DNA of 64,000 nucleotides. Source: Heptranchias perlo (Eukaryota). Positions 831 through 59,677 of this stretch are shown here, piece after piece. Below the pieces are notes generated by a model, which had not been told where the DNA came from, made no database searches, and saw nothing but the letters and a program-made list of their open reading frames with translations. The stretch lies in the NCBI RefSeq assembly GCF_035084215.1, contig NC_090336.1:29388001-29452000 (forward strand), in the 5' to 3' direction. Position 1 is the first letter of the stretch, and each line of letters starts with the position of its first letter. The position numbers and the translations under genes were made by a program.

Positions 831-3800
831 CGGCAGCTGGTGAATTTAAATTCAATCAAATAAAATCTGGAATTAAAATACTAGTATCAGTAATGATAGC
901 CATGAAACTACCGGATTGTTGTAAAAACCCATCTGGTTCACTAATGCCCTTTCGGGAAGGAAACCTGCTGTCCTTACCCGGTCTGGCCTATATGTGACTC
1001 CAGACCCTCAGCAATGTGGTTGATTCTTAATTGCCCTCTGAAATGGCCCAGCAAGCCACTCAGTTGTAAAATCTCACTACGAAAAGTCATAATAAGAATA
1101 AAACCGGACAGGGCACCGGACACGACAACGGCAAAACACCAAGCCCAGTCGACCCTGCAAGGTCCTCCTTACTAACATCTGGGGACTTGTGCCAAAATTG
1201 GGAGAGCTGTCCCACAGACTAGTCAATCAACAGCCTGACACAGCCATACTCACAGAATTATACCTTTCAGCCGACGTCCCAGACTCTTCCATCACCATCC
1301 CTGGGTATGTCCTGGGAGTCCTCAACATTGACTCTGGACCCCACGAAATCTCATGGCATCAGGTCAAACATGGGCAAAGAAACCTCATGCTGATGAGTCA
1401 GTCCTCCTCCATGTTGAGCACCACTTGGAGGAAGCACTCAGGGCAGCAAGGGCACAGAATGTACTCTGGGTGGGGGACTTCAATGTCCATCACCAAGAGT
1501 GGCTCAGTAGCACCACTACTGACCGAGCTGGCCGAGTCCTGAAGGACATAGCTGCTAGGCTCAGCGTGCGGCAGGTGGTGAGCGAACCAACACGAGGGAA
1601 AAACTTACTTGACCTCGTCCTCACCAATCAACCTGTCGCAAATGTATCTGTCCATGACAGTATTGGTAGGAGTGACCACTGCACAGTCCTCGTGGAGATG
1701 AAGTCCCGTCTTCGCACAGAGGACACCATCCAACGTGTTGTGTGGCACTACCACCGTGCTGAATGGGATAGATTCAGAACAGATCTAGCAGCTCAAAACT
1801 GGGCATCCATGAGGTGCTGTGGGCCATCAGCAGCAGCAGCAGAATTGTATTCCAGCACAATCTGTAACCTCATGGCCCGGCATATTCCTCACTCTACCAA
1901 CCATTACCAACAAGCCAGGGGATCAACCCTGGTTCAATGAAGAGTGTAGAAGAGCAAGCCAGGAGCAGCACCAGGCGTACCTAAAAATGAGGTGCCAACC
2001 TGGTGAAGTTACAACTCACGACTACATGCATGCTAATCAGCGGAAGCAACATGCTATAGACGGAGCTAAGCGATTCCACAACCAACGGATCAGATCAAAG
2101 CTCTGCAGTCCTGCCACAGCCAGTCGTGAATGGTGGTGGACAATTAAACAACTAACGGGAGGAGGAGGCTCTGCAAACATCCCCATCCTCAATGATGATG
2201 GAGTCCAGCACCTGAGTGAAAAGACAAGGCTGAAGCGTTTGCAAGCATCTTAAGCCAGAAGTGCCGAGTGGATGATCCATCTCGGCCTCCTCCCGATACC
2301 CCCACCATCACAGAAGCCAGTCTTCAGCCAATTCGATTCACTCCACGTGATATCAAGAAACAGCTGAGTGCACTGGATACAGCAAAGGCTATGGGCCCCA
2401 ACAACATCCCGGCTGTACTGCTGAAGACTTGTGCTCCAGAACTAGCTGCGCCTCTAGCCAACCTGTTCCAGTACAGCTACAACACTGGCATCTACCCGAC
2501 AATGTGGAAAATTGCCCAGGTATGTCCTGTCCACAAAAAGCAGGACAAATCCAATCCGGCCAATTACCGCCCCATCAGTCTACTCTCAATCATCAGCAAA
2601 GTGATGGAAGGTGTCGTCGACAGTGCTATCAAGCGGCACTTACTCACCAATAACCTGCTCACTGATGCTCAGTTTGGGTTCCGCCAGGACCACTCGGCTC
2701 CAGACATCATTACAGCCTTGGTCCAAACATGGACAAAAGAGCTGAATTCCTGAGGTGAGGTGAGAGTGACTGCCCTTGACATCAAGGCAGCATTTGACCG
2801 AGTATGGCACCAAGGAGCCCTAGTAAAATTGAAGTCAAGGGGAATTAGGGGGAAAACTCTCCAGTGGCTGGAGTCATACCCAGCACAAAGGAAGATGGTA
2901 GTGGTTGTTGGAGGCCAATGATCTCAGCCCCAGGACATTGCTGCAGGAGTTCCTCAGGGCAGTGTCCGAGGCCCAACCACCTTCAGCTGCTTCATCACTG
3001 AACTTCCCTCCATCATAAGGTCAGAAACGGGGATGTTCACTGACAATTGCACAATGTTCAGTTCCATTCGAAACCTCTCAAATAATGAAGCAGTCCGAGC
3101 CCGCATGTAGCAAGACCTGGACAACATCTAGGCTTGGGTTCATGAGTGGCAAGTAACATTCGCGCCCGACAAGTGCCAGGCAATGACCATCTCTAACAAG
3201 AGAGAGTCTAACCACCTCCCCTTGACATTCAACGGCATTACCATCGCCAAATCCCCCACCATCAACATTCTGGGGGTCACCATTGACCAGAAACTTAACT
3301 GGACCGGCCATATAAATACTGTGGCTAAAAGAGCAGGTCAGAGGCCGGGTATTCTGTGGCAAGTGACTCACCTCCTGACACCCCAAAGCCTTTCCACCAT
3401 CTACAAGGCACAAGTCAGGAGTGTGATGGAATACTCTCCACTTGCCTGGATGAGTGCAGCTCCAACAACACTCAAGAAGCTCGACACCATCCAGGACAAA
3501 GCAGCCCGCTTGATTGGCACCTCATCCACCACCCTAAACATTCACTCCCTTCACCACAAGCATACTGTGGCTGCAGTGTGTACCATCCACAGGATGCACT
3601 GCAGCAACTTACCAAGGCTTGTTCGACAGCACCTCCCAAACCCGCGACCTCTACCACCTAGAAGGACAAGAGCAGCAGGTACATGGGAACAACACCACCT
3701 GCCCATTCCCCTCCAAGTCACACACCTTCCCGACTTGGAAATATATCGCCGTTCCGTCATCGTCGCTGGGTCAAAATCCTGGAACTCCCTTCCTAACAAC

Positions 3801-3843
3801 ATTGTGGGAGAACCGTCACCACACGGACTGCAGCGGTTCAAGA
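744..3843 (+). mobile_element. Non-LTR retrotransposon (CR1/L2 group, single APE-RT ORF, degraded) with a tRNA-derived 5' head; 3' end displaced to 8915-9014
   Basis: APE motifs (VLLTNIWGL, ILTE, GDFN, LDLVL, SDH). RT motifs (NYRPISLL, QFGFR, DIKAAFD, GVPQGS) spread over frameshifted ORFs 1189-3908. No ORF1 between head and APE. Confidence 0.9.
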
Positions 3844-4615
3844 CAGCTGAGAGGAGCCGAGTGGAGCGGAGGGAGCGTCCGATAAAAGGCGGGATTTCAG
3901 AGCGCTGAGAACAGCTGAGAGGAGCTGAGTGGAGCGGAGGGAGCATCCGATAAAAGGCGGGATTTCAGAGCGCTGAGAACAGCTGAGAGGAGCCGAGCGG
4001 AGGGAGCGTCCGATAAAAGGCGGGATTTCAGAGCGCTGAGAACAGCTGAGAGGAGCCGAGCCGAGCGGAGGGAGCTTCCGATAAAAGGCGGGATTTCAGA
4101 GCGCTGAGAACAGCTGAGAGGAGCCGAGCCGAGCGGAGGGAGCGTCCCATAAAAGGCGGGATTTCAGAGCGCTGAGAACAGCTGAGAGGAGCCGAGCGGA
4201 GCGGAGGGAGCGTCCGATAAAAGGCGGGATTTCAGAGTGCTGAGAACAGCTGAGAGGAGCCGAGCCGAGCGGAGGGAGCGTCCGATAAAAGGCGGGATTT
4301 CAGAGCGCTGAGAACAGCTGAGAGGAGCGGATCGGAGCGGAGGGAGCTTCCGATAAAAGGCGGGATTTCAGAGCGCTGAGAACAGCTGAGAGGAGCCGAG
4401 CGAAGCGGAGGGAGCGTCCGATAAAAGGCGGGATTTCAGAGCGCTGAGAACAGCTGAGAGGAGCCAAGCAGAGCGGAGGGAGCGTCCGATAAAAGGTGGG
4501 ATTTCAGAGCGCTGAGAACAGCTGAGAGGAGCCGAGCCGAGTGGAGGGAGCGTCCGATAAAAGGCGGGATTTCAGAGCGCTGAGAACAGCTGAGAGGAGC
4601 CGAGCCGAGCGGAGC
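3844..4615 (+). repeat. CpG-rich 68-bp tandem array (~11.5 units) forming the CR1-A 5' end
   Basis: Unit CAGCTGAGAGGAGCCGAG...CGTCCGATAAAAGGCGGGATTTCAGAGCGCTGAGAA starts at 3844, 3912, 3980, 4043, 4111 ... 4587. Confidence 0.95.
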
Positions 4616-4929
4616 TGCGACCGAGTTCGAAGTGACGTCAGGAATCAGATCGGGACGCGACACAGGGGAGGCACCTGATTGGGGAGTAGGTTCAGGTGAG
4701 TATTTCTACTTATCGACAGTAACTAAAGTAAAAGGAAAGGGAAGGTCTGCAGGTCTTATAGGAAGTAGCGTTTTTTTTAGTGAATCAAGGTCCCTAGTGT
4801 AGTTAACATTCTCTAAATTAAGAACAATTTAAAGGAGTAAACTCCTTAAAGGGAGTGGTAAGTAGTTTTTCTTTCCTTTTTTTTCTCTTGACATTGTAGT
4901 TGTTGTTAAGCTAACTTAAGGGTTAAGTC

Positions 4930-5877
4930 ATGGCAGGAGATCCCACAGCCGTGTCATGTTCCTCTTGTGGGATGTGGGAATTCAGGGATCCTTCCTGTAT
5001 CCCTGATTCCTTCACCTGCGGGAAGTGTGTCCAGCTGCAGCTATTGTTTGACCGCTTGACGGCTCTGGAGCTGCGGATGGACTCACTTTGGAGCATCCGC
5101 GATGCTGAGAAAGTCGTGGATAGCACGTTCAGTGAGTTGGTCACACCGCAGATAAAAATTACTGAGGGAGATAGTGAATGGGTGACCAACAGACAGAGGA
5201 AGAGTAGGAAGGCAGTGCAGGGGTCCCCTGCGGTCATCTCCCTCCAAAACAGGTATACCGTTTTGGATACTGTTGGGGGAGATGGCTCACCAGGGGAAGG
5301 TGGCAGTGGCCAGGTTCATGGCACCGTGGCTGGCTCTGCTGCACAGGAGGGCAGGAAAAAGAGTGGCAGAGCTATAGTGATAGGGGACTCGATTGTAAGG
5401 GGAATAGACAGGCGTTTCTGCGGACGCAACCGAGACTCCAGGATGGTATGTTGCCTCCCTGGTGCAAGGGTCAAGGATGTCTCGGAGCGGCTGCAGGACA
5501 TTCTGGAGGGGGAGGGTGAACAGCCAGTTGTCGTGGTGCATATAGGCACCAACGATATAGGTAAAAAACAGGATGGGGTCCTAAAAGCTGAATTTAGGGA
5601 GTTAGGAGTTAAACTAAAGAGTAGGACCTCAAAGGGAGTAATCTCAGGATTGCTACCAGTGCCACGGGCTAGTCAGAGTAGGAATGACAGGATAGCTAGG
5701 ATGAATACGTGGCTTGAGAGATGGTGCAAGAGGGAGGGATTCAAATTCCTGGGCCATTGGAACCGGTTCTGGGGGAGGTGGGACCAGTACAAATTGGACG
5801 GTCTGCATCTGGGCAGGACTGGAACCAATGTCCTAGGGGGAGTGTTTGCTAGTGCTGTTGGGGAGGGTTTAAACTAA
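4930..5877 (+). CDS. CR1 ORF1: zinc finger/leucine zipper plus SGNH esterase domain (intact, 315 aa)
   Basis: CxxC...CxxC at the N-terminus, followed by heptad leucines. SGNH blocks GDS, GTND and DGLH. Confidence 0.92.
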   Translation: MAGDPTAVSCSSCGMWEFRDPSCIPDSFTCGKCVQLQLLFDRLTALELRMDSLWSIRDAEKVVDSTFSELVTPQIKITEGDSEWVTNRQRKSRKAVQGSPAVISLQNRYTVLDTVGGDGSPGEGGSGQVHGTVAGSAAQEGRKKSGRAIVIGDSIVRGIDRRFCGRNRDSRMVCCLPGARVKDVSERLQDILEGEGEQPVVVVHIGTNDIGKKQDGVLKAEFRELGVKLKSRTSKGVISGLLPVPRASQSRNDRIARMNTWLERWCKREGFKFLGHWNRFWGRWDQYKLDGLHLGRTGTNVLGGVFASAVGEGLN

Positions 5878-8818
5878 TGTGGCAGGGGGATGGGAACCGA
5901 TGCAGGAAGTCAGTGGGAAATAAAGTGGTGACAGAAACAAAAGGCAGTAAGGGAGAGTGTACAGAACATGACCGGACAGATGGTCTGAGAAAGCAGGGCA
6001 AAGACCAAGGGAAGTCTAGATTAAACTGCATTTATTTCAATGCAAGAAGTCTGATGGGCAAGGCAGATGAACTCAGGGCATGGATGGGTACATGGGACTG
6101 GGATGTTATAGCTATTACTGAAACATGGCTAAGGGAGGGGCAGGACTGGCAGCTCAATGTTCCAGGTACAGATGCTATAGAAAAGATAGGGCAGGAGGTA
6201 AGAGAGGAGGGGGAGTTGCGTTCTTGATTAGGGAGAACATCACGGCAGTAGTGAGAGGGGATATATCCGAGGGTTCGCCCACTGAGTCTATATGGGTAGA
6301 ACTGAAAAATAAGAAGGGAGAGATCACTTTGATAGGATTGTACTACAGACCCCCAAATAGTCAACGGGAAATTGAGGAGCAAATATGTAAGGAGTTTACA
6401 GACAGCTGCAAGAAAAATAGGTTGGTAATAATAGGGGACTTTAACTTTCCCAACATTTACTGGGACAGCCATAGCATTAGGGGCTTGGATGGAGAGAAAT
6501 TTGTTGAGTGTATTCAGGAGGAATTTCTCATTCAGTATGTGGATGGCCCGACTAGAGAGGGGGCAAAACTTGACCTCCTCTTGGGAAATAAGGAAGGGCA
6601 GGTGACAGAAGTGTTAGTGAGGGATCACTTTGGGACCAGTGATCATAATTCCATTAGTTTTAAGATAGCTATGGAGAAGGATAGGTCTGGCCCAAAAGTT
6701 AAAATTCTAAATTGGGGAAAGGCCAATTTTGATGGTATTAGACAGGAACTTTCAGAAGTTGATTGGGAGAGTCTGTTGGCAGGCAAAGGGACGTCTGGTA
6801 AGTGGGAGGCTTTCAAAGGTGTGTTAACCAGGGTTCAGGGTAAGCACATTCCTTATAAAGTGAAGGGCAAGGCTGGTAGAAGTAGGGAACCTTGGATGAC
6901 TCGGGAGATTGAGGCCCTAGTCAAAAAGAAGAAGGAGGCATATGACATGCATAGGCAGCTGGGATCAAGTGGATCCCTTGAAGAGTATAGAGATTGCCGG
7001 AGTAGAGTTAAGAGAGAAATCAGGAGGGCAAAAAGGGGACATGAGATTGCTTTGGCAGATAAGGCAAAGGAGAATCCAAAGAGCTTCTACAAATACATAA
7101 AGGGAAAAAGAGTAACTAGGGAGAGAGTAGGGCCTCTTAAGGATCAACAAGGTCATCTATGTGCTGAACCACAAGAGATGGGTGAGATCCTGAATGAATA
7201 TTTCACATCGGTATTTACGGTTGAGAAAGGCATGGATGTTAGGGAGCTTGGGGAAATAAATAGTGATGTCTTGAGGAGTGTACATATTACAGAGAGGGAG
7301 GTGCTGGAAGTCTTAACGCGCATCAAGGTAGATAAATCTCCGGGACCTGATGAAATGTATCCCAGGACGTTATGGGAGGTTAGGGAGGAAATTGCGGGTC
7401 CCCTAGCAGAGATATTTGAATCATCCACCGCTACAGGTGAGGTGCCTGAAGATTGGAGGGTAGCAAATGTTGTGCCTTTGTTTAAGAAGGGAGGCAGGGA
7501 AAAGCCTGGGAACTACAGACCGGTGAGCCTGACATCTGTAGTGGGTAAGTTGTTAGAGGGTATTCTGAGGGACAGGATCTACAGGCATTTGGAGAGGCAG
7601 GGACTGATCAGGAACAGTCAGCATGGTTTTGTGAGAGGAAAATCATGTCTCATGAATTTGATTGAGTTTTTTGAAGGGGTAACCAAGAAGATAGATGAGG
7701 GCTGTGCAGTAGACGTGGTCTACATGGACTTCAGCAAAGCCTTTGACAAGGTACCGCATGGTAGGTTGTTACATAAGGTTAAATTTCATGGGATCCAAGG
7801 TGAGGTAGCCAATTGGATACAAAATTGGCTTGACGACAGAAGACAGAGGGTGGGTGTCGAGAGTTGTTTTTCAAACTGGATGCCTGTGTCCAGCGGTGTG
7901 CCTCAGGGATCGGTGCTGGGTCCGCTGTTATTTGTTATTTATATTAATGATTTGGATGAGAATTTAGGAGGCATGGTTAGTAAGTTTGCAGATGACACCA
8001 AGATTGGTGGCATTGTGGACAGTGAAGAAGGTTATCTAGGATTGCAACGGGATCTTGATAAATTGGGCCAGTGGGCCAATGAATGGCAGATGTAGTTTAA
8101 TTTAGATAAATGTGAGGTGATGCATTTTGGGAGATCGAATCGGGCCAGGACCTACTCCGTTAATGGTAGGGCGTTGGGGAGAGTTATAGAACAAAGAGAT
8201 CTAGGAGTACAGGTTCATAGCTCCTTGAAAGTGGAGTCACAGGTGGATAGGGTGGTGAAGAAGGCATTCGGCATGCTTGGTTTCATTGGTCAGAACATTG
8301 AATGCAGGAGTTGGGATGTCTTGTTGAAGTTGTACAGGGCATTGGTGAGGCCACACTTGGAGTACTGTGTACAGTTCTGGTCACCCTATTATAGAAAGGA
8401 TATTATTAAACTAGAAAGAGTGCAAAAAAGATTTACTAGGATGCTACCGGGACTTGATGGGTTGACTTATAGGGAGAGGTTAGACAGACTGGGACTTTTT
8501 TCCCTGGAGAGTAGGAGGTTAAGGGGTGATCTTATAGAAGTCTATAAAATAATGAGGGGCATAGATAAGGTAGATAGTCAAAATCTTTTCCCAAAGGTAG
8601 GGGAGTCTATAACGAGGGGGCATAGATTTAAGGTGAGAGGGGAGAGATACAAAAGGGTCCAGAGGGGCAATTTTTTCACTCAAAGGGTGGTGAGTGTCTG
8701 GAACGAGCTGCCAGAGGCAGTAGTAGAGGCGGGTACAATTTTGTCTTTTAAAAAGCATTTGGACAGTTACATGGGTAAGATGGGTATAGAGGGATATGGG
8801 CCAAGTGCAGGAAATTGA
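5868..8818 (+). pseudogene. CR1 ORF2 (APE + RT) with a 1-bp frameshift near 6165 and an in-frame TAG at 8093-8095
   Basis: Motifs [53 protein letters not shown]. One G is missing near 6165 relative to copy B. Confidence 0.92.
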
Positions 8819-8914
8819 GACTAGCTTAGTGGTATAAACTGGGCGACATGGACATGTTGGGCCGAAGGGCCTGTTTCCATGTTGTAACTTCTATGATTCT
8901 TCTATGATTCTATG

Positions 8915-9450: not shown

Positions 9451-9627
9451 AGAAATTACCCCAAGTACTACGTGTAACTTGCTTTTGTTGCACTGTTTAC
9501 AGTAGAATTGCAAAGAGTGCAAATTAATGCTAATAGTTCCTATAATATTAGTACTTGAAATACTCTATTCTTCATAAAATAAGGAGTCTTACAACACCAG
9601 GTTATAGTCCAACAGCTTTATTTGAAA

Positions 9628-9664
9628 TCACAAGCTTTCGGAGCTTTGCTCCTTCGTCAGGTGA
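9628..9664 (-). ncRNA. Minimal type I hammerhead ribozyme in the Penelope terminal repeat (intact core)
   Basis: Minus strand reads TCAC-CTGACGA-A-GGAGC AAA GCTCC-GAAA-GC-TT-GTGA: stem I, CUGANGA core, stem II, GAAA, palindromic AGCU stem III. Confidence 0.8.
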
Positions 9665-11031
9665 GTGCAGGGTTCCATAAAGGCACCGCATATATAGTCA
9701 CAGAACAATGCCTGGTGATTACCGATAATCTTTCCAACTGCCCGTTTTCACACCTCGGCAGAGAGATAATCACAGCAATCAAAGGAGTGGATGGTGTTCA
9801 GACAGGGGAACATTACACCCAAGACTACTGAATACACAAGCGGTCAGATTACAAAGACAGAGAGAGAGAGGGAGAGAGACACCCGAAAGGCAGAGAGAGA
9901 GAGAGAGAATGACCAGTTGTATTAAAAACAGATAACTTTTTTCTCCTGGTGGGGTTACATGTAGCGTGACATGAATCCAAGATCCCGGTTGAGGCCGTCC
10001 TCATGGGTGCGGAACTTGGCTATCAATTTCTGCTCGACAAATTTGCATTGCCGTGTGTCTCGAAGGCCGCCTTGAAGAACGCTTACCCGAAGATCGGAGG
10101 CTGAATGTCCCTGACTGCTGAAGTGTTCCCCGACTGGGAGGGAACCTTCCTGTCTGGCGATTGTTGTGCGGTGTCCGTTCATCCGTTGTCACAGTGTCTG
10201 CATGGTTTCGCCAATGTACCATGCTCCGGGGCATCCTTTCCTGCAACATATGAGGTAGACAACGTTGGCCGAGTCACAGGAGTATGAACCATGTACCTGG
10301 TGGGTGGTGTCCTCTCGTGTGATGGTGGTATCTGTATCGATGATCTGGCATGTCTTGCAGAGGTTGCCGTGGCAGGGTTGTGTGGTGTCGTGGACGCTGT
10401 TCTCCTGAAAGCTGGGTAATTTGCTGTGAACGATGGTCTGTTTGAGGTTAGGTGGCTGTTTAAAGGCGAGTAGTGGAGGTGTGGGGATGGCCTTAGCGAG
10501 GTGTTTGTCGTCATCGATGACATGTTGAAGGCTGCGGAGAACACGGCGTAGTTTCTCTGCTCCGGGGAAGTACTGGACGACGAAGGGTACTCTGTTGGTT
10601 GTGTCCCGTGTTTGTCTTCTGAGGAGGTCTATGCGATTTTTCGCTGTGGCCCGTTGGAACTGTCGATCAACGAGTCGAGCGTCATATCCCGTTCTTACGA
10701 GGGCGTCTTTCAGTGTCTGTAGGTGTCCATCGCGTTCCTCCTCGTCTGAGCAGACCCTGTGTATTCGCAGGGCCTGTCCATAGGGGATGGCCTCTTTGAC
10801 ATGGTTAGGGTGGAAGCTGGAAAAGTGGAGCATCATGAGGTTGTCCGTGGGCTTGCGGTAGAGTGAGGTGCTGAGGTGCCCGTCTTTGATGGAGGTTTGT
10901 GTGTCCAAGAAAGAAACCGATTCTGAGGAGTAGTCCATGGTGAGTTTGATGGTGGGATGGAACTTGTTGATGTTATCGTGTAGTCTCTTCAGTGATTCTT
11001 CGCCGTGGGTCCATAGGAAGAAAATGTCAAC

Positions 11032-12156
11032 TTCTTCACTGCACAGGACCTCCAACTAACGCTATACACCAGATACATCGACGACATTTTCTTCCTATGG
11101 ACCCATGGCGAAGAATCACTAAAGAGACTACACGATAACATCAACAAGTTGCATCCCACCATCAAACTCACCATGGACTACTCCTCAGAATCGGTTTCAT
11201 TCTTGGACACACGAATCTCCATCAAAGACGGGCACCTCAGCACCTCACTCTACCGCAAGCCCACGGACAACCTCACGATGCTCCACTTTTCCAGCTTCCA
11301 CCCTAACCACGTCAAAGAGGCCATCCCCTATGGACAGGCCCTGCGAATACACAGGATCTGCTCAGACGAGGAGGAACGCGATGGACACCTACAGACACTG
11401 AAAGACGCCCTCGTAAGAACGGGATATGACGCTCGACTCATCGATCGACAGTTCCGACGGGCCACAGCGAAAAATCGCATAGACCTCCTCAGAAGACTAA
11501 CACGGGACACAACCAACAGAGTACCCTTCGTTGTCCAGTACTTCCCCGGAGCGGAGAAACTACGCCATGTTCTTCGCAGCCTTCAACATGTCATCGATGA
11601 CGACGAACACCTCGCTAAGGCCATCCCCACGCCTCCACTACTCGCCTTTAAACAGCCACCCAACCTCAAACAGACCATCATTCGCAGCAAATTACCCAGC
11701 TTTCAGGAGAACAGCGTCCACAACACCACACAACCCTGCCACGGTAACCTCTGCAAGACATGCCAGATCATCGACACAGATACCACCATCACACGAGAGG
11801 ACACCACCCGCCAGGTGCATGGTTCATACTCCTGTGACTCGGCCAACGTTGTCTACCTCATACGTTGCAGGAAAGGATGCCCCGGAGCATGGTACATTGG
11901 CGAGACCATGCAGACACTGCGACAACGGATGAACGGACACCGCACAACAATCGCCAGACAGGAGGGTTCCCTCCCAGTCGGGGAACACTTCAGCAGTCAG
12001 GGACATTCAGCCACCGACCTTCGGGTAAGCGTTCTCCAAGGCGGCCTTCGAGACACACGACAATGCAAAATTGTCGAGCAGAAATTGATAGCCAAGTTCC
12101 GCACCCATGAGGACGGCCTCAACCGGGATCTTGGGTTCATGTCACGCTACATGTAA
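11032..12156 (+). CDS. 5'-truncated Penelope RT/GIY-YIG reading frame, open from the inversion junction to the stop
   Basis: FFTAQDLQLTLYTRYIDDIFFLW...SFLD...LYRKPTD...CHGNLCKTC...VVYLIRC...YIGET...GLNRD. The left arm carries the same frame with a stop. Confidence 0.75.
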   Translation, partial: FFTAQDLQLTLYTRYIDDIFFLWTHGEESLKRLHDNINKLHPTIKLTMDYSSESVSFLDTRISIKDGHLSTSLYRKPTDNLTMLHFSSFHPNHVKEAIPYGQALRIHRICSDEEERDGHLQTLKDALVRTGYDARLIDRQFRRATAKNRIDLLRRLTRDTTNRVPFVVQYFPGAEKLRHVLRSLQHVIDDDEHLAKAIPTPPLLAFKQPPNLKQTIIRSKLPSFQENSVHNTTQPCHGNLCKTCQIIDTDTTITREDTTRQVHGSYSCDSANVVYLIRCRKGCPGAWYIGETMQTLRQRMNGHRTTIARQEGSLPVGEHFSSQGHSATDLRVSVLQGGLRDTRQCKIVEQKLIAKFRTHEDGLNRDLGFMSRYM

Positions 12157-40769: not shown

Positions 40770-43700
40770 GTAGAATGGTTACAGCACAGAAGGCTGCCAT
40801 CTGGCCTGTGCCTGCTCTTTGTAAGAGCAATCCAGTTGGTCCCATTCCCCCTCCTCCCCCACGTAGCCCTGCAAATTTTTTCCCTTCAAGTATTTATCCA
40901 ATTCCTTTTTGAAAGCCACAGTTGAATCTGCTTCCACCATCCTTTCAGGCAGTGCATTCGAGATCATAACTGCTCGCTGTGTAAAAACATTTTTCCTCAT
41001 GTCGCCTTTGGTTCTTTTACCAATCACCTTAAATCTGTCCCCGCTGGTTCTTGACCCTTCCACCAATGGGAACAGTTTATCTTTATCTTTCATGATTTTG
41101 AACACTATCAAATTTCTTCTCAACCTTTTCTGCTCTAAGGAGAGCAACCCCAGCTTCTCCAATCTATCCACGTAACTGAAGTCCCTCATCCCAGGAACCA
41201 TTGTAGTAAATCTTTTCTCTAAGGCCTTCACATCCTTCCTAAAGTGCGGTGCACAGAATTGGACACAATACTCCAGTTGTGGCTGAACCAGTGTTTTATA
41301 AATAGTTCAACATAACGTCTGTGCTTTTGTACTCTATGCCTCTATTTAGAAAGCCCAGGATCCCGAATGCATTTTTAAAATCACTTTGTTGACCTGTCCT
41401 GCACTTTCAAAGATTTATGCACTTTTCCCCTCAGGTCTCTGTTCCTGCACCCCCTTTAGAATTGTACCATTTAGTTTATACTGCCAAAATGTATCACTTC
41501 GCAATTTTCTGCATTAAATTTCATTTATCATGTGTCTGTCCATTCCACCAGTCTGTCTCTGTCCTCATGAAGTCTATTACTATCCCCCTCACTGTTCACT
41601 ACACTTCCAAGTTGTGTGTTATCTACACCCAATTCATTAATGTATTATATCAAAAAAAGCAGTGATCCTAGTACTGACTCCTGGGGAACACCACTGTATA
41701 CCTTCCTCCAGTCCAAAAAACAATCGGTCACCAGTACTCTGTTGCCTGTCACTTAACCAATGTTGTAACATGCTGCCACTGCCCCTTTTATTCTGTGGGC
41801 TTCAATTTTGCTGACAAGCCTATTGTGGCACTTTATCAAATGCCTTTTGAAAGTCTAAACACACAACAACAGCATTGCCCTCATCAAAAAACTCAATCAA
41901 TTTAGTTAAACAACAAATCCATGCTGGCTTTCCTTTATTAATCCACATTGTCCAGGTGACTTAATTTTGTCCTGGATTATCGTTTCTAAAAGCTTCCCCA
42001 TCAGAGGTTAAACTGACTGGCCTGTAGTTGCTGGGTTTATCCTTGGACCCTTTTTTGAACAAGGGTTTAACATTTGCAATTCTCTAGTCCTCTGGCACCA
42101 CCCCTGTGTCTAAGGAGGATTGGAAGATTATGGCTGGTACCTCCACAATTTCCACCCTTACTTCCTGCAACTTAAGATGGATTTTATCTGGACTGGGTGA
42201 CTTATCTACTTTAAGTACAGCCAGCCTTTCTAGTACCTCCTGTATTAATTTTTAGCCCATCCAGTACCTCGACTACCTTTTACTGTGACTTTAGCAGCTT
42301 CTTCTTCCTTGGTAAAGACAGATGCAAAGTACTGATTTAATACCTCAGTCATGCCCTCTGCCACCATGTGTAGATCTCCTTTTTGGTCCCTAAATAGGCC
42401 CCATCCCTCTTCTTACTAACTGTATGCCTATAGAAGACATTGGGATTCCCTTTTATGTTAGCTACTAGTCTATTCTCATTCTCAGCCCCTCTTATTTCCG
42501 CTCTCTCGCTCTCACCATCCAGGGACCCTACCTTTCCCCCTCATGGGAATGTACCCAAACCATCTCCTCTTTAAAGGCCACCCATTGGTCAATTACAGTT
42601 TTACCTGTCAATCTGATTCCAATTTACCCGGGTCAGATCAGTTCTCAACCCACTGAAATTGGCACCCCTCCACTTAAGTATTTTTACTCTAGATTGCTCC
42701 TTGTCCTTTTCCATAAGGAATTTAAACCTATTCCTACAATGATCACTGTTCCCTGAATGTTCCTCATGGACAATTGCTCCACTTGACCCACCTCATTCCC
42801 CAGAACTAAATCCAGCAATGCCTCCTTCCTCATTGGGCCAAAAATATACTGATCAAGAAAGTTCTCCTGAACACACTTCAGAAATTCCTCCCCCCTTTAC
42901 AGCATGCACACAATCATATTCCCATTTGGCTACTTGCAGCTGCCCACCTAATACTGCACTGTTTCTTAAGCTAGACCTATCTGTCTCTGCCAATTCTTTG
43001 TGCACCTTGTATCTCCTTTCTAATGCTACATCCTGGTGTCCATCCCCCTGCCAAATTAGTTTAAACCCTCCCCCACAGCACCAGTGAGCCTCCCCATGAG
43101 GACATTGGTCCCATCTCTGTTTAGGTCCAACCCGACCATCTTGAACAGGTCCCAAGAATCTGAGCCCTCCCTCTTACACAGTGTCTCTAGCCATGCATTA
43201 ACCTGCCTTATCATCCTATTTCTGTTATCACTGGCGCATGGCACTAGGAGTAATCCAGAGATTACTACCTTTGAGATCCTGCTTTTTAAACTTTGTCCCT
43301 AGCTCCTGAAACTCTGACCACAGGATCTCATCCCTTTTCTTTCCTATGCCATTGGTACCCACATGGACCACAACTTCTGGCCATTCCCTATCCTTTACCC
43401 TGACACCAGGGAGGCAACACAACATGTCAGTGGTCACAGAAACGCCTGTCTGTACCCCTGACTATCGAGTCCCCTATGACTACTGCATTTCTACACTTCA
43501 CTGTGCCCCCATGCGGTCCTTTGCCCCACAGTGCCATGCTCAGGACTGCACTCCTTTGAGGTGTCGTCACCCTCACTGGTATTCAATGCTGAATACCAAT
43601 TTGAGTGCGCCACACACCCAGAAGATTCCTGCACTGTCTGCCCCTTTCAGATAGCCACCCACTTGCTATCCTGAACTCTGGCTGTGGGGTGACCACCTCC

Positions 43701-43870
43701 TGGAACGTACGATCCAGGAAACCTTCAGCCTCCCTTATGCTCTGCAGTGACTCCAGCTGCCCCTCAAGCTCAGAAACCCTCAGCTTGAGCAACTGGAGGC
43801 ATTTCCTGCACGAAGCATCCTGAAGTTCTCACACGGCACTGGAATTGCAGGCGATGGGTCTCAGTTGCCC
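40770..43870 (-). mobile_element. Old degraded CR1 (ORF1 remnants, internally deleted ORF2)
   Basis: CCLPG, HVGTN, AVGEGLN* and RT C-terminus remnants. Confidence 0.85.
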
Positions 43871-47900: not shown

Positions 47901-48275
47901 TGATCCCTCCACCGCCACCCCCCACCTTTTTAGTTTAAAGCCCTATCTGCCACCCTAGTTATTCGATTCACCAGGACACTGGTCCCAGCCCAGTTTAAGT
48001 GGAGCCCATCCCAATGGAACAGTTCCCTCTTTTCCCAGTACACCATGAATTGAAACTGTCTCCCACACCACTCAGCCACACATTTAACTCTGATCTGTTT
48101 GACCCGATGCCAATTTGCACATCGTTCAGGTAGTAATCCAGAGATTACTACCTTTGAGGTTCTGTTTATTAATTTGGATCCTAGCTCCTCAAACTCACTC
48201 AGCAGAACCTCATTCCTAGTTCTACCTATGTCGTTGGTTCCTACATGGACCACGACAACTGGATCCTCCTCCTTG
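44936..48275 (-). mobile_element. Old degraded CR1 (end of ORF1 plus ORF2)
   Basis: HVGTND...DGLHL...RALN*, then GDFN, FAD and VRPHLEY remnants. Confidence 0.85.
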
Positions 48276-53661: not shown

Positions 53662-54193
53662 CGAAGGAGCAATTAAGTTTTAAAGATGATAAAATGTGTT
53701 TTGCATCTTTGATATAGTAACATTGGGGTCTCACTGGTTTTAAATATCAGCATTTTCACTTTGAAAAACTGACAGAACTGGTTCTTCTGGTTTCTTTCTG
53801 TTCTGTGTTTTTTTCTGCCTTGTTATCCCTAATTTATTTTGACAGACTACGTAAATCACTCTGGAGTAGGAGTGAAGTGAAAAGGAGTGTGTATGAGTGT
53901 GCAGACATGTGCAGTTGATCCTTCTTTATGATGCTCAGCACAGGATCCTGATGGGGGCGGAGAAACAAAAATAATTTGGAATGTACCGTACTGTGAGGAT
54001 ATTGGGTACCAGTTAGGAACACACAGTCAAGAACACTGGGGTAATAACAAGGAGTGTGAAGACATTGGAATGGGCTGGGAACTTATGCAATACCCTCAGA
54101 AGATGATGGAAAGGGTCCCTGCTAAGAAGTAATTACATCGAGGTGGTGGGACTATCTATATGAGGACCTGAACAGAAGAGAGACATCAAATCA

Positions 54194-55528
54194 GACCAGC
54201 GCGGCGGCGGACCTGATCGGGAGCAGAGGAGAGAGACCGAGAGCGGGGATAAAAGAGCGGCGGACCGAGGCCCGAGACCAGAGCGGCGGCGGACCTGATC
54301 GGGAGCAGAGGAGAGAGACCGAGAGCGGGGATAAAAGAGCGGCGGACCGAGGCCCGAGACCAGAGCGGCGGCGGACCTGATCGGGATCAGAGGAGAGAGA
54401 CCGAGAGCGGGGATAAAAGAGCGGCGGACCGAAGCCCGAGACCAGAGCGGCGGCGGACCTGATCGGGAGCAGAGGAGAGAGACCGAGAGCGGGGATAAAA
54501 GAGCGGCGGCCCGAGGCCCGAGACCAGAGCGGCGGCGGACCTGATCGGGATCAGAGGAGAGAGACCGAGAGCGGGGATAAAAGAGCGGCGGCCCCAGCCC
54601 CGAGACCAGAGCGGCGGCGGACCTGATCGGGAGCAGAGGAGAGAGACCGAGAGCGGGGATAAAAGAGCGGCGGCCCGAGACCAGAGCGGCGGCGGACCTG
54701 ATCGGGAGCAGAGGAGAGAGACCGAGAGTGGGGATAAAAGAGCGGCGGACCGAGGCCCGAGACCAGAGCGGCGGCGGACCTGATCGGGATCAGAGGAGAG
54801 AGACCGAGAGTGGGGATAAAAGAGCGGCGGACCGAGGCCCGAGACCAGAGCGGCGGCGGACCTGATCGGGAGCAGAGGAGAGAGACCGAGAGCGGGGATA
54901 AAAGAGCGGCGGACCGAGGCCCGAGGCCCGAGAGGTGGCGGACCTGATCGGGATCAGAGGAGAGAGACCGAGAGCGGGGATAAAAGAGCGGCGGACCGAG
55001 GCCCGAGACCAGAGCGGCGGCGGACCTGATAGGGAGCAGAGGAGAGAGACCGAGAGCGGGGATAAAAGAGCGGCGGCCCGAGGCCCGAGACCAGAGAGGC
55101 GGCGGACCTGATCGGGATCAGAGGAGAGAGACCGAGAGCGGGGATAAAAGAGCGGCGGACCGAGGCCCGAGGCCCGAGAGGCGGCGGACCTGATCGGGAT
55201 CAGAGGAGAGAGACCGAGAGCGGGGATAAAAGAGCGGCGGCCCGAGGCCCGAGGCCTGAGAGGTGGCGGACCTGATCGGGATCAGAGGAGAGAGACCGAG
55301 AGTGGGGATAAAAGAGCGGCGGACCGAGGCCCGAGGCCAGAGAGGTGGCGGACCTGAGCGGGAGCAGGGAGAGAGACCGAGAGTGGGGATAAAAGAGCGG
55401 CGGACCGAGGCCCGAGACCAGAGCGGCGGCGGACCTGAGCGGGATCAGAGGAGAGAGACCGAGAGCGGGGATAAAAGAGCGGCGGACCGAGGCCCGAGAC
55501 CAGAGAGGTGGCGGACCTGAGCGGGATC
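54194..55528 (+). repeat. CpG-rich ~82-bp tandem array (~16 units) forming the CR1-B 5' end
   Basis: Unit AGACCAGAGCGGCGGCGGACCTGATCGGGAGCAGAGGAGAGAGACCGAGAGCGGGGATAAAAGAGCGGCGGACCGAGGCCCG. Confidence 0.95.
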
Positions 55529-55777
55529 AAAAACAACAACAGAAAACCAAGGAGTGACGTCACAGGACAGCAGGTAAGTGATTGGTTGGTGCATATTACT
55601 GTTTTTTTTTCTTCTTCTTCTCTAAATTAGGGCATTAGTTTAAACTAAGAGCTGGGAAACTAAGCAGCTTTTATAGCAGGTAGTGTGTTTTTTTTTTAGT
55701 GAACCTTGGTCCCTGGTATAGTTAACATTTTCAAATTTCAACGTAATTTAAAAGGGGTAACTAAGCTAAGGCAAATC

Positions 55778-56728
55778 ATGGCAGCAGACCTCGCACCCGT
55801 GATATGCCCCTCCTGCAAGATGTGGGAAGTAATGGACACTACCAGTGTCCCTGCCGACCATGTGTGCAGGAAGTGTATCCACCTGCAGCTACTGACCGAT
55901 CATATCTCGGAGCTGGAGCTGCGGGTGGATTCACTGTGGAGCATCCGCGATGCAGAGAAACTCGTGGATAGCACGTTTAGCGAGTTGGTCACACCGCAGG
56001 TAAAGGCAGTACAGGCAGGAAGTGAATGGGTGACCACCAGGAAGAGTAAGAGGTGCAGGCAGGTAGTGCAGGGGTCCCCTGTGGCCATCCCCCTCTCAAA
56101 CAGGTATACGGTTTTGGATACTGTTGTGGGAGATGGCTCACCAGGGGAAGGTGGCAGCGGCCAGGTTCATGGCACCGTGGCTGGCTCTGCTGCACAGGAG
56201 GGCAGGAAAAAGAGTGGCAGAGCTATAGTGATAGGGGACTCGATTGTAAGGGGAATAGACAGGCGTTTCTGCGGACGCAACCGAGACTCCAGGATGGTAT
56301 GTTGCCTCCCTGGTGCAAGGGTCAGGGATGTCTCGGAGCGGCTGCAGAACATTCTGGAGGGGGAGGGTGAACAGCCAGTTGTCGTGGTGCATATAGGTAC
56401 CAACGATATAGGTAAAAAACGGGATGAGGTCCTACAAGCTGAATTTAGGGAGTTAGGAGTTAAACTAAAAAGTAGGACCTCAAAGATAGTAATCTCAGGA
56501 TTGCTACCAGTGCCACGGGCTAGTCAGAGTAGGAATGACAGGATAGCTAGGATGAATACGTGGCTTGAGAGATGGTGCAAGAGGGAGGGATTCAAATTCC
56601 TGGGACATTGGAACCGGTTCTGGGGGAGGTGGGACCAGTACAAATTGGACGGTCTGCATCTGGGCAAGACTGGAACCAATGTCCTAGGGGGAGTGTTTGC
56701 TAGTGCTGTTGGGGAGGGTTTAAACTAA
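55778..56728 (+). CDS. CR1 ORF1 (zinc finger plus SGNH esterase), intact
   Basis: ATG at 55778 (MAADLAPVICPSC...). GDS, GTND and DGLH motifs. Confidence 0.9.
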   Translation: MAADLAPVICPSCKMWEVMDTTSVPADHVCRKCIHLQLLTDHISELELRVDSLWSIRDAEKLVDSTFSELVTPQVKAVQAGSEWVTTRKSKRCRQVVQGSPVAIPLSNRYTVLDTVVGDGSPGEGGSGQVHGTVAGSAAQEGRKKSGRAIVIGDSIVRGIDRRFCGRNRDSRMVCCLPGARVRDVSERLQNILEGEGEQPVVVVHIGTNDIGKKRDEVLQAEFRELGVKLKSRTSKIVISGLLPVPRASQSRNDRIARMNTWLERWCKREGFKFLGHWNRFWGRWDQYKLDGLHLGKTGTNVLGGVFASAVGEGLN

Positions 56729-59677
56729 AGTGGCAGGGGGATGGGAATCGATGCAGGAAGTCAGTGGGAAATAAAGTGGTGACAGAAACAAAAGGCAGTA
56801 AGGGAGAGTGTACAAAACATGACCAGACAAATGGTCTGAGAAATCACGGCAAAGACCAAGGGAAGTCTAGATTAAACTGCATTTATTTCAATGCAAGACG
56901 TCTGATGGGCAAGGCAGATGAACTCAGGGCATGGATGGGTACATGGGACTGGGATGTTATAGCTATTACTGAAACATGGCTAAGGGAGGGGCAGGACTGG
57001 CAGCTAAATATTCCAGGGTACAGATGCTATAGGAAAGATAGAGCAGGAGGTAAGAGAGGAGGGGGAGTTGCGTTCTTGATTAGGGAGAACATCACGGCAG
57101 TAGTGAGAGAGGATATATCCGAGGGTTCGCCCACGGAGTCGATATGGGTAGAACTGAAAAATAAGAAGGGAGAGATCACTTTGATAGGATTGTACTACAG
57201 ACCCCCAAATAGTCAACGGGAAATTGAGGAGCAAATATGTAAGGAGATTACAGACAGCTGCAAGAAAAATAGGGTGGTAATAGTAGGGGACTTTAACTTT
57301 CCCAACATTTACTGGGACAGCCATAGCATTAGGGGCTTGGATGGAGAGAAATTTGTTGAGTGTATTCAGGAGGAATTTCTCATTCAGTATGTGGATGGCC
57401 CGACTAGAGAGGGGGCAAAACTTGACCTCCTCTTGGGAAATAAGGAAGGGCAGGTATCAGAAGTGTTAGTGAGGGATCACTTTGGGACCAGTGATCATAA
57501 TTCCATTAGTTTTAAGATAACTATGGAGAAGGATAGGTCTGGCCCAAAAGTTAAAATTCTAAATTGGGGAAAGGCCAATTTTGATGGTATTAGACAGGAA
57601 CTTTCAGAAGTTGATTGGGAGAGTCTGTTGGCAGGCAAAGGGACGTCTGGTAAGTGGGAGTCCTTCAAAAATGTGTTAATCAGGGTTCAGGGTAAGCACA
57701 TTCCTTATAAAGTAAAGGGCAAGGCTGGTAGAAGTAGGGAAACTTGGATGACTCGGGAGATTGAGGCCCTAGTCAAAAAGAAGAAGGAGGCATATGACAT
57801 GCATAGGCAGCTGGGATCAAGTGGATCCCTTGAAGAGTATAGAGATTGCCGGAGTAGAGTTAAGAGAGAAATCAGGAGGGCAAAAAGGGGACATGAGATT
57901 GCTTTGGCAGATAAGGCAAAGGTGAATCCCAAAGAGCTTCTACAAATACATAAAGGGCAAAAGAGTAACTAGGGAGAAAGTAGGGCCTCTGAAGGATCAA
58001 CAAGGTCATCTATGTGCGGAACCACAAGAGATGGGTGAGATCCTAAATGAATATTTCGCATCGGTATTTACGGTTGAGAAAGGCATGGATGTTAGGGAAC
58101 TTGGGGAAATAAATAGTGATGTCTTGAGGAGTGTACATATTACAGAGAGGGAGGTGCTGGAAGTCTTAACGCGCATCAAGGTAGATAAATCTCCGGGACC
58201 TGATGAAATGTATCCCAGGACGTTATGGGAGGTTAGGGAGGAAATTGCGGGTCCCCTAGCAGAGATATTTGAATCATCCACCGCTACAGGTGAGGTGCCT
58301 GAAGATTGGAGGGTAGCAAATGTTGTGCCTTTGTTTAAGAAGGGCGGCAGGGAAAAGCCTGGGAACTACAGACCGGTGAGCCTGACATCTGTAGTGGGTA
58401 AGTTGTTAGAGGGTATTCTGAGAGACAGGATCTACGGGCATTTGGAGAGGCAGGGACTGATCAGGAACAGTCAGCATGGTTTTGTGAGAGGAAAATCATG
58501 TCTCACGAATTTGATTGAATTTTTTGAAGGGGTAACCAAGAAGATAGATGAGGGCTGTGCAGTGGACGTGGTCTACATGGACTTTAGCAAAGCCTTTGAC
58601 AAGGTACCGCATGGTAGGTTGTTACATAAGGTTAAATCTCACGGGATCCAAGGTGAGGTAGCCAATTGGATACAACATTGGCTTGACGACAGAAGACAGA
58701 GGGTGGGTGTAGAGGGTTGTTTTTCAAATTGGAGGCCTGTGACCAGCGGTGTGCCTCAGGGATCGGTGCTGGGTCCGCTGTTATTTGTTATTTATATTAA
58801 TAATTTGGATGAGAATTTAGGAGGCATGGTTAGTAAGTTTGCAGATGACACCAAGATTGGTGGCATCGTGGACAGTGAAGAAGGTTATCTAGGATTGCAA
58901 CGGGATCTTGATAAATCGGGCCAGTGGGCCGATGAATGGCAGATGTAGTTTAATTTAGATAAATGTGAGGTGATGCATTTTGGGAGATCGAATCGGGCCA
59001 GGACCTACTCCGTTAATGGTAGGGTGTTGGGGAGAGTTATAGAACAAAGAGATCTAGGAGTACAGGTTCATAGCTCCTTGAAAGTGGAGTCACAGGTGGA
59101 TAGGGTGGTGAAGAAGGCATTCAGCTTGCTTGGTTTCATTGGTCAGAACATTGAATACAGGAGTTGGGATGTCTTGTTGAAGTTGTACAAGACATTAGTT
59201 AGGCCACACTTGGAATACTGTGTACAGTTCTGGTCACCCTATTATAGAAAGGATATTATTAAACTAGAAAGAGTGCAGAAAAGATTTACTAGGATGCTGC
59301 CGGGACTTGATGGTTTGACTTATAGGGAGAGGTTAGATAGACTGGGACTTTTTTCCCTGGAGAGTAGGAGGTTGAGGGGTGATCTTATAGAAGTCTATAA
59401 AATAATGAGGGGCATAGTTAAGGTAGATAGTCAAAATCTTTTCCCAAAGGTAGGGGAGTCTATAACGAGGGGACATAGATTTAAGGTGAGAGGGGAGAGA
59501 TACAAAAGGGTCCAGAGGGGCAATTTTTTCACTCAAAGGGTGGTGAGTGTCTGGAACGAGCTGCCAGAGGCAGTAGTAGAGGCGGGTACAATTTTGTCTT
59601 TTAAAAAGCATTTGGACAGTTACATGGGTAAGATGGGTATCGAGGGATATGAGCCAAGTGCAGGCAATTGGGACTAG
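56719..59677 (+). pseudogene. CR1 ORF2 with a 1-bp frameshift near 57929 and an in-frame TAG at 58946-58948
   Basis: Near-identical to copy A ORF2, with an extra C in GAATCCC. Confidence 0.92.

Follow-up and report, generated by a model that had tools for sequence, protein, structure and literature searches.

How is ORF2 translated in a CR1 retrotransposon whose ORF1 ends in a slippery heptamer directly followed by a stop codon? The translation of LINE ORF2 is called an open and important question in the available text of PMC3894237, and the routes named in the available portions of three reviews are reinitiation, IRES, or 2A only (PMC3894237, PMC2881922, PMC5009743). The window analyzed here, a 64,000-nt stretch of the Heptranchias perlo genome, contains four CR1 ORF1/ORF2 junctions, in copies that we call A, B, C, and D. 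From the sequence of these junctions and of related proteins, we infer that programmed -1 frameshifting, giving an esterase-APE-RT fusion, is the best reading, with a probability of roughly 0.8. This interpretation had been proposed in a sequence-only reading of the window and is supported, short of proof, by synonymous scrambling around the site, covarying protein ends, an unstructured ORF1 terminus, and the lack of a conserved ATG.

CR1 elements in the window

Copies A–D are vertebrate CR1 LINEs. A hallmark of CR1 is a 3' octamer microsatellite in place of poly(A), and TTCTATGA-type 3' octamer repeats are present in both A (8888..8914, +, without poly(A)) and B. Pfam assigns copy B ORF2 an APE domain (PF03372/PF14529) followed by RT (PF00078), and these are the only domains matched, with no protease that could process a fusion. 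ORF1 matches PF13472 and has the same SGNH esterase domain as PDB 4C1B (E 1.6e-38), and its relatives occur in birds, turtles, squamates, frogs, and rays. RT/ORF2 identities are 67-69% to unnamed or mislabelled ORF2s and 29% to another LINE at position 2232.

Copy A begins with a 5' UTR of tandem 68-bp monomers (11.4 copies; 3843..4614, +), followed by a 315-aa ORF1 (4930..5877, +) that encodes a Cys-rich N-terminus, a long helix (modeled as a zipper helix at residues 31-71), and an SGNH esterase, and that ends in GLN-stop. Its ORF2 (APE, RT; 5868..8818, +) is entered in the -1 frame and is interrupted twice, by a 1-nt indel near 6165 and by a TAG at 8093-8095. Copy B is flanked by a 6-bp AAATCA duplication and has a 5' UTR of tandem 82-bp monomers (16.4 copies; 54193..55529, +), a 316-aa SGNH esterase ORF1 with the same GLN-stop end (55778..56728, +), and an ORF2 (56719..59677, +) with a 1-nt indel near 57928 and, at 58946-58948, the TAG that it shares with copy A. 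Copy C retains a decayed ORF1 (43056..43870, -) and copy D an ORF1 remnant (47930..48268, -). Because A and B are 95.6% identical, the window represents three independent lineages, not four. A tblastn search with 10 diverse ORF1 proteins as queries found no fifth ORF1 in the window.

Sequence and frame of the ORF1/ORF2 junction

Coronaviruses shift frame at the heptamer U UUA AAC, and in Rous sarcoma virus the gag stop codon directly follows the heptamer. The sequence-only reading had placed TTTAAACTAA at 5868-5877(+), 56719-56728(+), 43056-43065(-), and 47930-47939(-), and we find it at exactly these positions. At every junction (4/4) the SGNH-esterase ORF1 ends in the phase xxT TTA AAC TAA, the codon before TTA being GGT in A, B, and C and GCT in D. 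The heptamer T TTA AAC lies in X XXY YYZ phase at 5868..5874 (+) in copy A, occupies 56719..56728 (+) together with its TAA in copy B, and lies at 43059-43065 (-) in copy C and 47933-47939 (-) in copy D. TTTAAACTAA occurs six times in the window versus 0.24 expected; TTTAAAC alone is common (25 matches versus 10.6 expected). The two further TTTAAACTAA matches form a palindromic pair (55635-55648) in the copy B 5' UTR, not at an ORF1 end.

The -1 frames read FKLMWQGDG, FKLKWQGDG, FKLIWQGDG, and FKLKRWG, as reported earlier, and are open through the ORF1 stop in 4/4 copies, beginning 1 to 36 codons upstream. In copy B this frame was said to run unbroken from the heptamer into the APE domain, with its first ATG after APE motif I, and both statements hold: the frame is open from 56704 to 57972, the motif-I Asn is codon 58, and the ATG is codon 63. 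The -1 frame of copy A contains APE motif I and the ETW motif before reaching the indel near 6165, and that of copy D contains the ETW motif after compensating indels. In copy C, where the APE start is deleted, the -1 frame stays open for 70 codons, and frames 0 and +1 contain 7 and 5 stops. The heptamer itself contains a stop in the +1 frame. On the question of ORF2 phase, the window junctions place ORF2 in the -1 frame, A, C, and D being consistent with B. An ATG overlapping the ORF1 stop is, as had been noted, limited to copy A, where the TAA abutting the heptamer reads TAATG (5875..5879, +); the corresponding bases in B, C, and D are TAAAG, TAATT, and TAAAA.

If the heptamer is functional, its codons should be fixed against synonymous alternatives, and in the window copies it is indeed fixed amid largely scrambled synonymous sites. 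Across the CR1 coding stretches in the window, TTA accounts for 39 of 216 Leu codons, AAC for 33 of 100 Asn codons, and third-position T for 0.26 of Gly/Ala codons, which together give 0.015 per lineage. Between the ORF1s of A and C/D, 2 of 23 shared Leu codons are identical, and 39 of 84 fourfold sites (46%) have the same codon, i.e., these sites are not fully saturated. The chance of C and D both keeping all three sites is roughly 0.0006-0.007 (0.6 assumed for Asn). Constraint at the junction acts on the RNA, beyond the needs of the protein, with this window supplying the DNA-level evidence.

ORF1 C-termini in related proteins

Asn is the last residue of 205 esterase ORF1 proteins. It is preceded by Leu in 182 of them and otherwise by G in 10, C in 4, K, S, and E in 2 each, and I, A, and F in 1 each. 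The named Leu-Asn matches come from rays, turtles, birds, squamates, alligator, and frogs. Leu-Asn ends 87 of 105 new relatives from the database search and 112 of 118 vertebrate-clade rows, and in tails of 22-39 aa it still lies at the stop. Of 115 proteins whose tails have the same length, 110 have the L and 111 the N, 109 the catalytic D and 108 the catalytic H, and helix-face positions vary by 1.2-2.2 bits. The last helix of the AlphaFold model ends at residue 310, and residues 312-315 have pLDDT under 50. In this model, the terminal Leu-Asn is outside the predicted esterase fold, yet invariant like the catalytic Asp and His.

The penultimate residues L, G, and K are those coded by UUA, GGA, and AAA (XXA codons), and the residue before them differs in kind. 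Residues that have no T-ending codon (K, E, Q, M, W) precede LN in 3 of 182 proteins, compared with 44 and 57 at the two positions before that, and Q precedes GN in 9 of 10. With proteins clustered at 60%, the ratio of pyrimidine-only to purine-only residues is 14:0 for residues preceding L and 0:7 for those preceding G/K (Fisher 9e-6 with 60% clusters, 0.002 with 50%, 0.036 with 45%); since the rows are related by descent, these Fisher values and the binomial values overstate independence, and the GN ends all fall within one 22-row clade. As read from the residues, this class switch matches what X XXA AAC demands. For the GN, KN, and FF proteins, the evidence consists of ORF1 ends. Exceptions are ELN in three proteins, and SN, EN, and CN ends also exist.

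A heptamer-compatible tripeptide is present in 40 of 48 tails of a deeper clade versus 12.2 expected; in ZfL2-like esterases, used as a control, the signature is found in 2 of 13 versus 2.7 expected. In one clade, KN sites lie 5-15 codons ahead of the stop. The ESM Atlas placed a GN-ending protein in 'Eukaryota, commonest Chordata' (0.96) and gave weak leads under 0.8 for another protein. Three frame-shifted database proteins (one named, Hypanus) have F-K-L in the -1 frame at the position where 82-89% identical relatives have LN-stop, a combination that forces TTTAAAY, and the residue after F-K-L is N, D, or G, never M. This window is the source of all junction DNA obtained, so the tetrapod and deeper-clade heptamers are deduced from residues.

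Candidate stimulators

G-runs had been noted after each heptamer and are present in 4/4 copies, with GG at +7 in every copy and a GG-repeat tract that begins 6 nt past the heptamer. In copy A the tract (5881..5894, +) has four GG steps and a G5 at +11 and is a candidate stimulator; its counterparts lie at 56732..56745 (+) in B, 43040..43052 (-) in C, and 47905..47926 (-) in D. The 6-nt spacer of copies A–D fits the 5-9 nt rule for stimulators given in the available text of PMC3542737. Quadruplex-stimulated shifting has an optimum of 6-8 nt, in an example with three tiers (PMC3919603); the quadruplex predicted here at the 6-nt spacer is weak, with two tiers only. Alternatively, the G-tract could reflect the conserved WQGDG residues. 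No stable local hairpin was found after the site in any of the four copies (z -0.01 to -1.08 versus shuffles, in pseudoknot-free folding), no Rfam family matched the junction, and a long-range duplex scan gave no homologous partner across the four copies. Duplex partners approximately 640-650 nt upstream in A, B, and C were rejected, the C partner being non-homologous to those of A/B and D having none.

Proposed mechanism and alternatives

We hypothesize that ribosomes translating ORF1 reach U UUA AAC with tRNA-Leu in the P site and tRNA-Asn in the A site. The majority would terminate at the adjoining UAA and release ORF1p, and a minority would slip back one base onto UUU AAA and decode CUA next. 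The GEGL/F-KL-x transframe peptide proposed earlier has to be corrected, because tandem slippage decodes Leu and Asn in frame 0 before CUA and would therefore yield GLN-L-x-WQG. Shifted ribosomes would then pass through a linker of 50-60 residues before translating APE and RT, producing a single ORF1-ORF2 polypeptide of about 1,300 aa, comparable to gag-pol. The pause would most likely come from the G-rich tract 6 nt downstream, which might form a small quadruplex or bind a protein, and/or from the adjacent stop codon.

An unlikely alternative to frameshifting, yet one documented for other elements, is that translation ends at the ORF1 UAA and resumes at an overlapping AUG, as in SART1 and influenza B BM2, or at any codon, as for mammalian L1, to make a separate ORF2p, with TTTAAAC as part of a termination or tethering context. 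SART1 (UAAUG coupling) and L1 (AUG-independent ORF2) use this route on bicistronic non-LTR RNAs, with low ORF2 output that needs ORF1 translation, according to the available parts of PMC2881922, PMC3894237, and PMC1965478. Copy A resembles SART1 in its exact UAAUG stop-start, near-cognate codons are present in B (AAG), C (ATT), and one codon on in D (AGG), and in the vertebrate clade stop and heptamer go together. Across the CR1 copies, however, it is the heptamer that is kept and not the AUG, and the predicted product is fused. ATG is found at 1/4 window junctions and 0/3 shifted database proteins, which differs from the conserved AUG overlapping or adjoining the stop in the UAAUG coupling of SART1, BM2, and calicivirus, and the -1 frame is open across the stop in 4/4 copies, unlike L1-type non-overlapping ORFs with an inter-ORF spacer. 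Reinitiation guided by TURBS uses a UGGGA motif located 40-90 nt ahead of the stop (PMC3542737, available text), and UGGGA does precede the heptamer, by 89 nt in A, B, and C and by 48 nt in C and D (in D also by 74 and 98 nt), but these matches are Trp-Asp or Gly-Thr codons and share no single conserved distance. Restarting also fails to predict the exchange of L, G, and K (X XXA AAC-type) with a matching preceding residue, or the upstream KN sites of one clade.

It is considerably less probable that ORF1p itself needs Leu-Asn, for folding, for a ligand, or as a degron, with the codons inherited by common descent and ORF2 made by some unrelated route. The i+4 spacing of the terminal Leu with hydrophobic helix residues, the unsaturated fourfold sites between A, C, and D, and the presence of only three lineages in the window are consistent with such a protein constraint. 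Against it, the final four residues are unstructured in the model, LN is missing from the solved ZfL2-1 esterase 4C1B and from its clade, L is swapped with G and K and not with I, V, or M, the preceding residue covaries by codon third bases, and Leu codons elsewhere are scrambled. Least probable of all is another event at the nucleic acid level, such as the slip of a single tRNA triggered by the stop, splicing that yields a separate ORF2 mRNA, or a DNA/RNA motif for protein binding. In favor of such an event, the stop abuts the heptamer in most relatives, and neither local folding nor the long-range scan found a canonical stimulator; a stop-triggered slip would, however, also count as -1 frameshifting and yield the same fusion. 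Splicing was rejected because the purine-rich junctions have no pyrimidine tract, and they also lack a fixed branch-point base. A binding motif would suit the palindromic TTTAAA and the similar palindrome in the copy B 5' UTR, but the GGA and AAA variants are not palindromic.

Programmed -1 frameshifting may extend across the entire radiation of esterase-ORF1 CR1 elements, which reaches from sharks to birds and takes in a deeper sister clade, a tentative proposal to which we give somewhat less than even odds. Under this proposal, a Gag-Pol-like ORF1-ORF2 fusion would have been maintained while heptamers were exchanged over time (U UUA AAC, G GGA AAC, A AAA AAC, U UUU UUZ), with the pause arising from the G-tract or quadruplex and the adjacent stop, not from a pseudoknot. 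The fusion would tether APE-RT to ORF1p, a membrane-binding, self-associating protein.

Relation to known systems

As in retroviral gag-pol, LTR retrotransposons, and nidovirus ORF1a/1b (described in available portions of PMC3542737 and PMC5009743), a canonical-phase heptamer ends the structural ORF of CR1, the replicase lies in the -1 frame without its own start, and G-rich sequence follows 6 nt downstream. Unlike these systems, the host is a non-LTR (target-primed) retrotransposon, its junctions yielded no stem-loop or pseudoknot in local folding, Rfam matching, or the long-range scan, and no protease domain was matched in its ORF2. Among the closest described elements are those of CR1 subgroup 7, whose type IVB ORF1 combines a zinc finger/leucine zipper with an esterase (Metcalfe and Casane, 2014; PMC4120745) and which share with copies A–D an esterase ORF1, an APE-RT ORF2, and an octamer 3' end; the words 'frameshift' and 'overlap' do not occur in the available part of that paper, nor is a junction signal described there. 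The ZfL2-1 esterase ORF1p (PDB 4C1B; PMC3905857, in part) has the SGNH domain common to CR1 ORF1 and belongs to a clade without the slippery-type C-terminus. Recoding in non-LTR elements is itself known from HeT-A, as covered in part of PMC5009743, where TART expression is given as unknown. The HeT-A shift sits inside gag, in an element without RT, whereas the CR1 site is at the ORF1/ORF2 junction. Frameshifting within a non-LTR gene is therefore not new, and the novelty would be an ORF1-ORF2 fusion made through a canonical heptamer. Our literature search, the scope of which excluded the 1997-2003 CR1 papers and Repbase, found no report of a slip site at the CR1 junction.

In the chicken, CR1 accounts for 11.8% of the genome annotation (PMC11835228). 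If the frameshift reading is true, the CR1 replicase in its active form is fused to ORF1p, and the delivery of RT by esterase ORF1p would have to be rethought. CR1 ORF annotation would change to an ORF2 without a start codon of its own, CR1 constructs in retrotransposition assays would need rereading, and the junction would become a naturally occurring candidate for stimulation by a G-tract or quadruplex. If it is true of the whole radiation, the signal would be an undescribed one, ranking among the oldest and most widespread cases of recoding in vertebrate genomes.

Searches beyond the window

A GTDB scan returned three loci at 23-28% identity, which were set aside as bacterial-type SGNH matches or a 531-nt contig, and tblastn of plasmid and phage sequences gave no match. 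No ORF1/ORF2 junction was found in the searched paper supplements, in which the table cells of PMC7757076 comprise only the first 400 characters, and a full-text motif search gave 0 matches. The matches in the PMC4316615 supplement correspond to the ORF2 3' end. In Ranitomeya, the ORF1-ORF2 gene model P0263 leaves out the junction and is uninformative. Among 38 long ORF2 relatives, a mixed survey that we do not count as support, 26 have a leader with a start, which weighs against the frameshift reading, and in only the other 12 does the first predicted start fall at or after APE motif I.

CR1 Elements of the Window

The window is vertebrate repeat-rich DNA with several CR1-type LINEs, four of which (copies A to D) keep the end of ORF1. 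Copies A (3843–8914, +) and B (54193–59763, +) are near full length, terminate in octamer repeats, and are 95.6% identical from ORF1 onward; C and D are decayed older copies of other lineages (A and C share about 64% identity across the junction region). ORF1 encodes an SGNH esterase and ORF2 an APE and RT, and the closest named ORF1 relatives come from the sawshark Pristiophorus japonicus (75–77% identity), followed by rays and sharks (40–57%). The ORF1 N-terminal halves of A and B are more diverged (83% protein identity overall).

The 5′ UTRs of A and B consist of unrelated tandem monomers (68 bp × 11.4 at 3843–4614; 82 bp × 16.4 at 54193–55529), which on such similar bodies is promoter swapping. 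Both contain splice-like signals (about 4697–4900; 55574–55700), namely a GTRAGT donor-like site and a common T-run ending in AG some 80–150 nt 5′ of the ORF1 ATG; these may explain why some protein matches are host-gene isoforms with a fused CR1 ORF1. Both ORF2s also carry an in-frame TAG (8093–8095 and 58946–58948, +) at a WQM-x-FN motif past the RT core. Divergence downstream of it (11 synonymous differences per 152 sites, 8 nonsynonymous per 568; ratio 0.19 vs 0.23 upstream) looks purifying, a combination that would require readthrough, recombination or two identical hits.

A Conserved Heptamer at the ORF1/ORF2 Junction

All four ORF1 ends carry TTTAAACTAA in the phase xxT TTA AAC TAA (5868–5877 and 56719–56728, +, in A and B; 43056–43065 and 47930–47939, −, in C and D), bearing out the slippery site claimed by the sequence-only reading. 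The frames of all four copies are likewise consistent with its placement of ORF2 in the −1 frame, which is open through the APE in B, in A contains the ETW motif as well as motif I ahead of a 1-nt indel, reaches ETW in D once compensating indels are passed, and is open for 70 codons in C, where the APE start is deleted. The +1 frame meets a stop within the heptamer in every copy. As that reading also held, only A has an ATG overlapping the stop, and the first ATG of B (codon 63) lies beyond APE motif I (Asn at codon 58). The 5′ UTR of B, unlike that of A, contains the palindrome TTAGTTTAAACTAA (55635–55648), which matches the junction 10-mer on both strands.

Codon usage was taken from ten pooled CR1 coding stretches of the window (eleven, less the near-duplicate ORF1 of B). 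With TTA at 39/216 Leu codons, AAC at 33/100 Asn codons and T-ending codons at 26% of Gly/Ala, the heptamer codons would arise by chance at 0.015 per independent lineage. Common descent does not account well for the conservation either, because synonymous codons between A and C or D have mostly changed (39/84 fourfold sites agree). Retention of all three sites in both lineages by descent has a rough probability of 0.0006–0.007, the Asn term being assumed. Free synonymous variation, which the sequence-only reading named as counting against it, is not seen at the heptamer within the window: the site is fixed while shared ORF1 leucines mostly differ in codon (2/23 the same).

ORF1 Protein Ends in Relatives

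DNA-level comparison was confined to the window and, since no DNA beyond it was obtained, relatives (364 ORF1-type proteins from three protein searches) were judged by protein ends. One search returned 105 new matches, 87 with a Leu-Asn (LN) C-terminus, from named sources including turtles, birds, lizards, an alligator and frogs; another also named a snake ORF1 protein. A quick ML tree was built from 191 proteins with the last esterase motif recognisable 22–42 residues before the end, and in its vertebrate clade 112/118 rows end in LN. Among 115 tails of equal length, L is kept in 110 and N in 111, the catalytic D in 109 and H in 108, and buried helix positions are variable. In an AlphaFold model the last helix stops at residue 310 and residues 312–315 have pLDDT <50; the solved ZfL2-1 esterase lacks a C-terminal LN. 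Three vertebrate CR1 proteins (P0007, P0260 and P0334) are labelled Pseudomonas aeruginosa, Carnobacterium maltaromaticum and Klebsiella pneumoniae, on 3–4 kb contigs, and are likely assembly contamination.

Most informative are the replacements of LN. After removal of 8 of 213 Asn-ending proteins whose end was not the esterase end, the penultimate residue of the remaining 205 is L in 182, G in 10, C in 4, K, S and E in 2 each, and I, A and F in one each. L, G and K are dissimilar, yet UUA, GGA and AAA, which encode them, are forms that the middle codon takes in X XXA AAC, and the third base of the preceding codon is set by the same rule. Residues without a T-ending codon directly precede LN in 3/182 proteins, vs 44 and 57 at the two adjoining upstream positions; Gln, whose codon can end in G but never T, precedes GN in 9/10, GN ends being confined to one clade. 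At 60% clustering (53 clusters, 9 proteins removed) the count of preceding residues with pyrimidine-only vs purine-only third bases is 14:0 for L and 0:7 for G/K; it is 8:0 and 0:4 at 50%, and 6:0 and 0:2 at 45%. In a deeper clade (55 rows, proteins alone) a heptamer-compatible tripeptide is present in 40/48 distinct tails, with 12.2 expected from upstream windows, vs 2/13 (2.7 expected) in the ZfL2-like control clade (18 rows); the rows being kin, p-values on such tail and residue counts are too generous. Finally, in three database proteins from frame-shifted copies the −1 frame gives F-K-L at the place of LN-stop in relatives with 82–89% identity. TTTAAAY followed by a stop is the sole sequence compatible with both readings; the residue after F-K-L is N, D or G, never M. 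The CR1 junction carries a real, deeply conserved nucleotide signal, one that has the sequence attributes of −1 programmed frameshifting save an identified stimulator.

Probable Frameshifting and Its Rival, Reinitiation

We consider that CR1 ORF2 is probably reached by −1 frameshifting (probability roughly 0.8), most likely by tandem slippage as set out in PMC3542737. Leu and Asn would be decoded in frame 0, both tRNAs would re-pair onto UUU AAA, and CUA would be the next codon, yielding an ORF1-linker-APE-RT fusion of ~1,300 aa; ribosomes that do not shift would terminate immediately. As Leu-Asn is read in frame 0 before CUA, the transframe peptide expected is GLN-L-x-WQG, correcting the GEGL/F-KL-x-WQGDG proposed earlier.

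The main rival is termination-reinitiation at the ORF1 stop, to which the UAAUG of A, near-cognate codons in B and C, and UGGGA motifs upstream of the site lend support. It leaves unaccounted for, however, both the exchange among L, G and K, with its matching third bases, and Lys-Asn sites lying several codons 5′ of the stop. Long ORF2 relatives, taken irrespective of ORF1 type, are mixed, 12 of 38 starting at or after motif I and 26 having a start-bearing leader.

A G-run tract claimed to follow each site is present in all four copies, with GG at +7 and at least five consecutive G from +10 or +11; such a run begins within a given 4-nt window at ~1% of positions. In three copies the tract doubles as WQGDG coding sequence; the quadruplex predicted by ViennaRNA has two tiers and is weak. 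Quadruplex-stimulated −1 shifting has an optimum spacer of 6–8 nt and reaches up to ~7% with a three-tier quadruplex, according to PMC3919603. A possible G-tract or quadruplex stimulator is a lead only. Folding of the 101 nt 3′ of each site did not exceed shuffles (z −0.22, −0.42, −1.08, −0.01), an Rfam search gave zero matches, and a scan of the four copies for long-range pairing revealed no homologous partner.

In the early 1990s, frameshifting was loosely proposed for some overlapping non-LTR ORFs. It is already known, at −1, in viruses and LTR elements; an ORF1-ORF2 fusion made this way in a LINE is absent from the literature searched. That literature, covered in part, included PMC2881922, PMC8665684, PMC4255032, PMC11835228, PMC1965478, PMC3894237 and bioRxiv 2025.10.02.679949, with supplements of PMC8665684, PMC4316615, PMC6523648 and PMC7757076, and held no report of CR1 frameshifting; an early remark is possible in Haas 1997, Kajikawa 1997, Kapitonov and Jurka 2003 or Repbase entries. 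In the text searched, PMC5009743 describes a HeT-A gag frameshift, gives TART as unknown, calls L1 initiation unusual and does not contain "CR1"; in the portions available, "frameshift" is absent from PMC3905857, as are "frameshift" and "overlap" from PMC4120745.

Other Elements

Copy A is inserted into the 3′ end of another LINE (APE-RT; 1332–3908, resuming past 8914) with 29% identity to the CR1 RT. A 3-kb inverted self-match (9580–12535, 95.6%) is made up of two opposed RT/GIY-YIG-like ORFs (10189–11055, −; 11017–12156, +) that matched no Pfam family at E 0.001; its motifs look Penelope-like. RT elements from a further LINE clade, in decayed form, lie at 30188–32599, and a Harbinger-type DDE_Tnp_4 nuclease remnant at 26158–26895.
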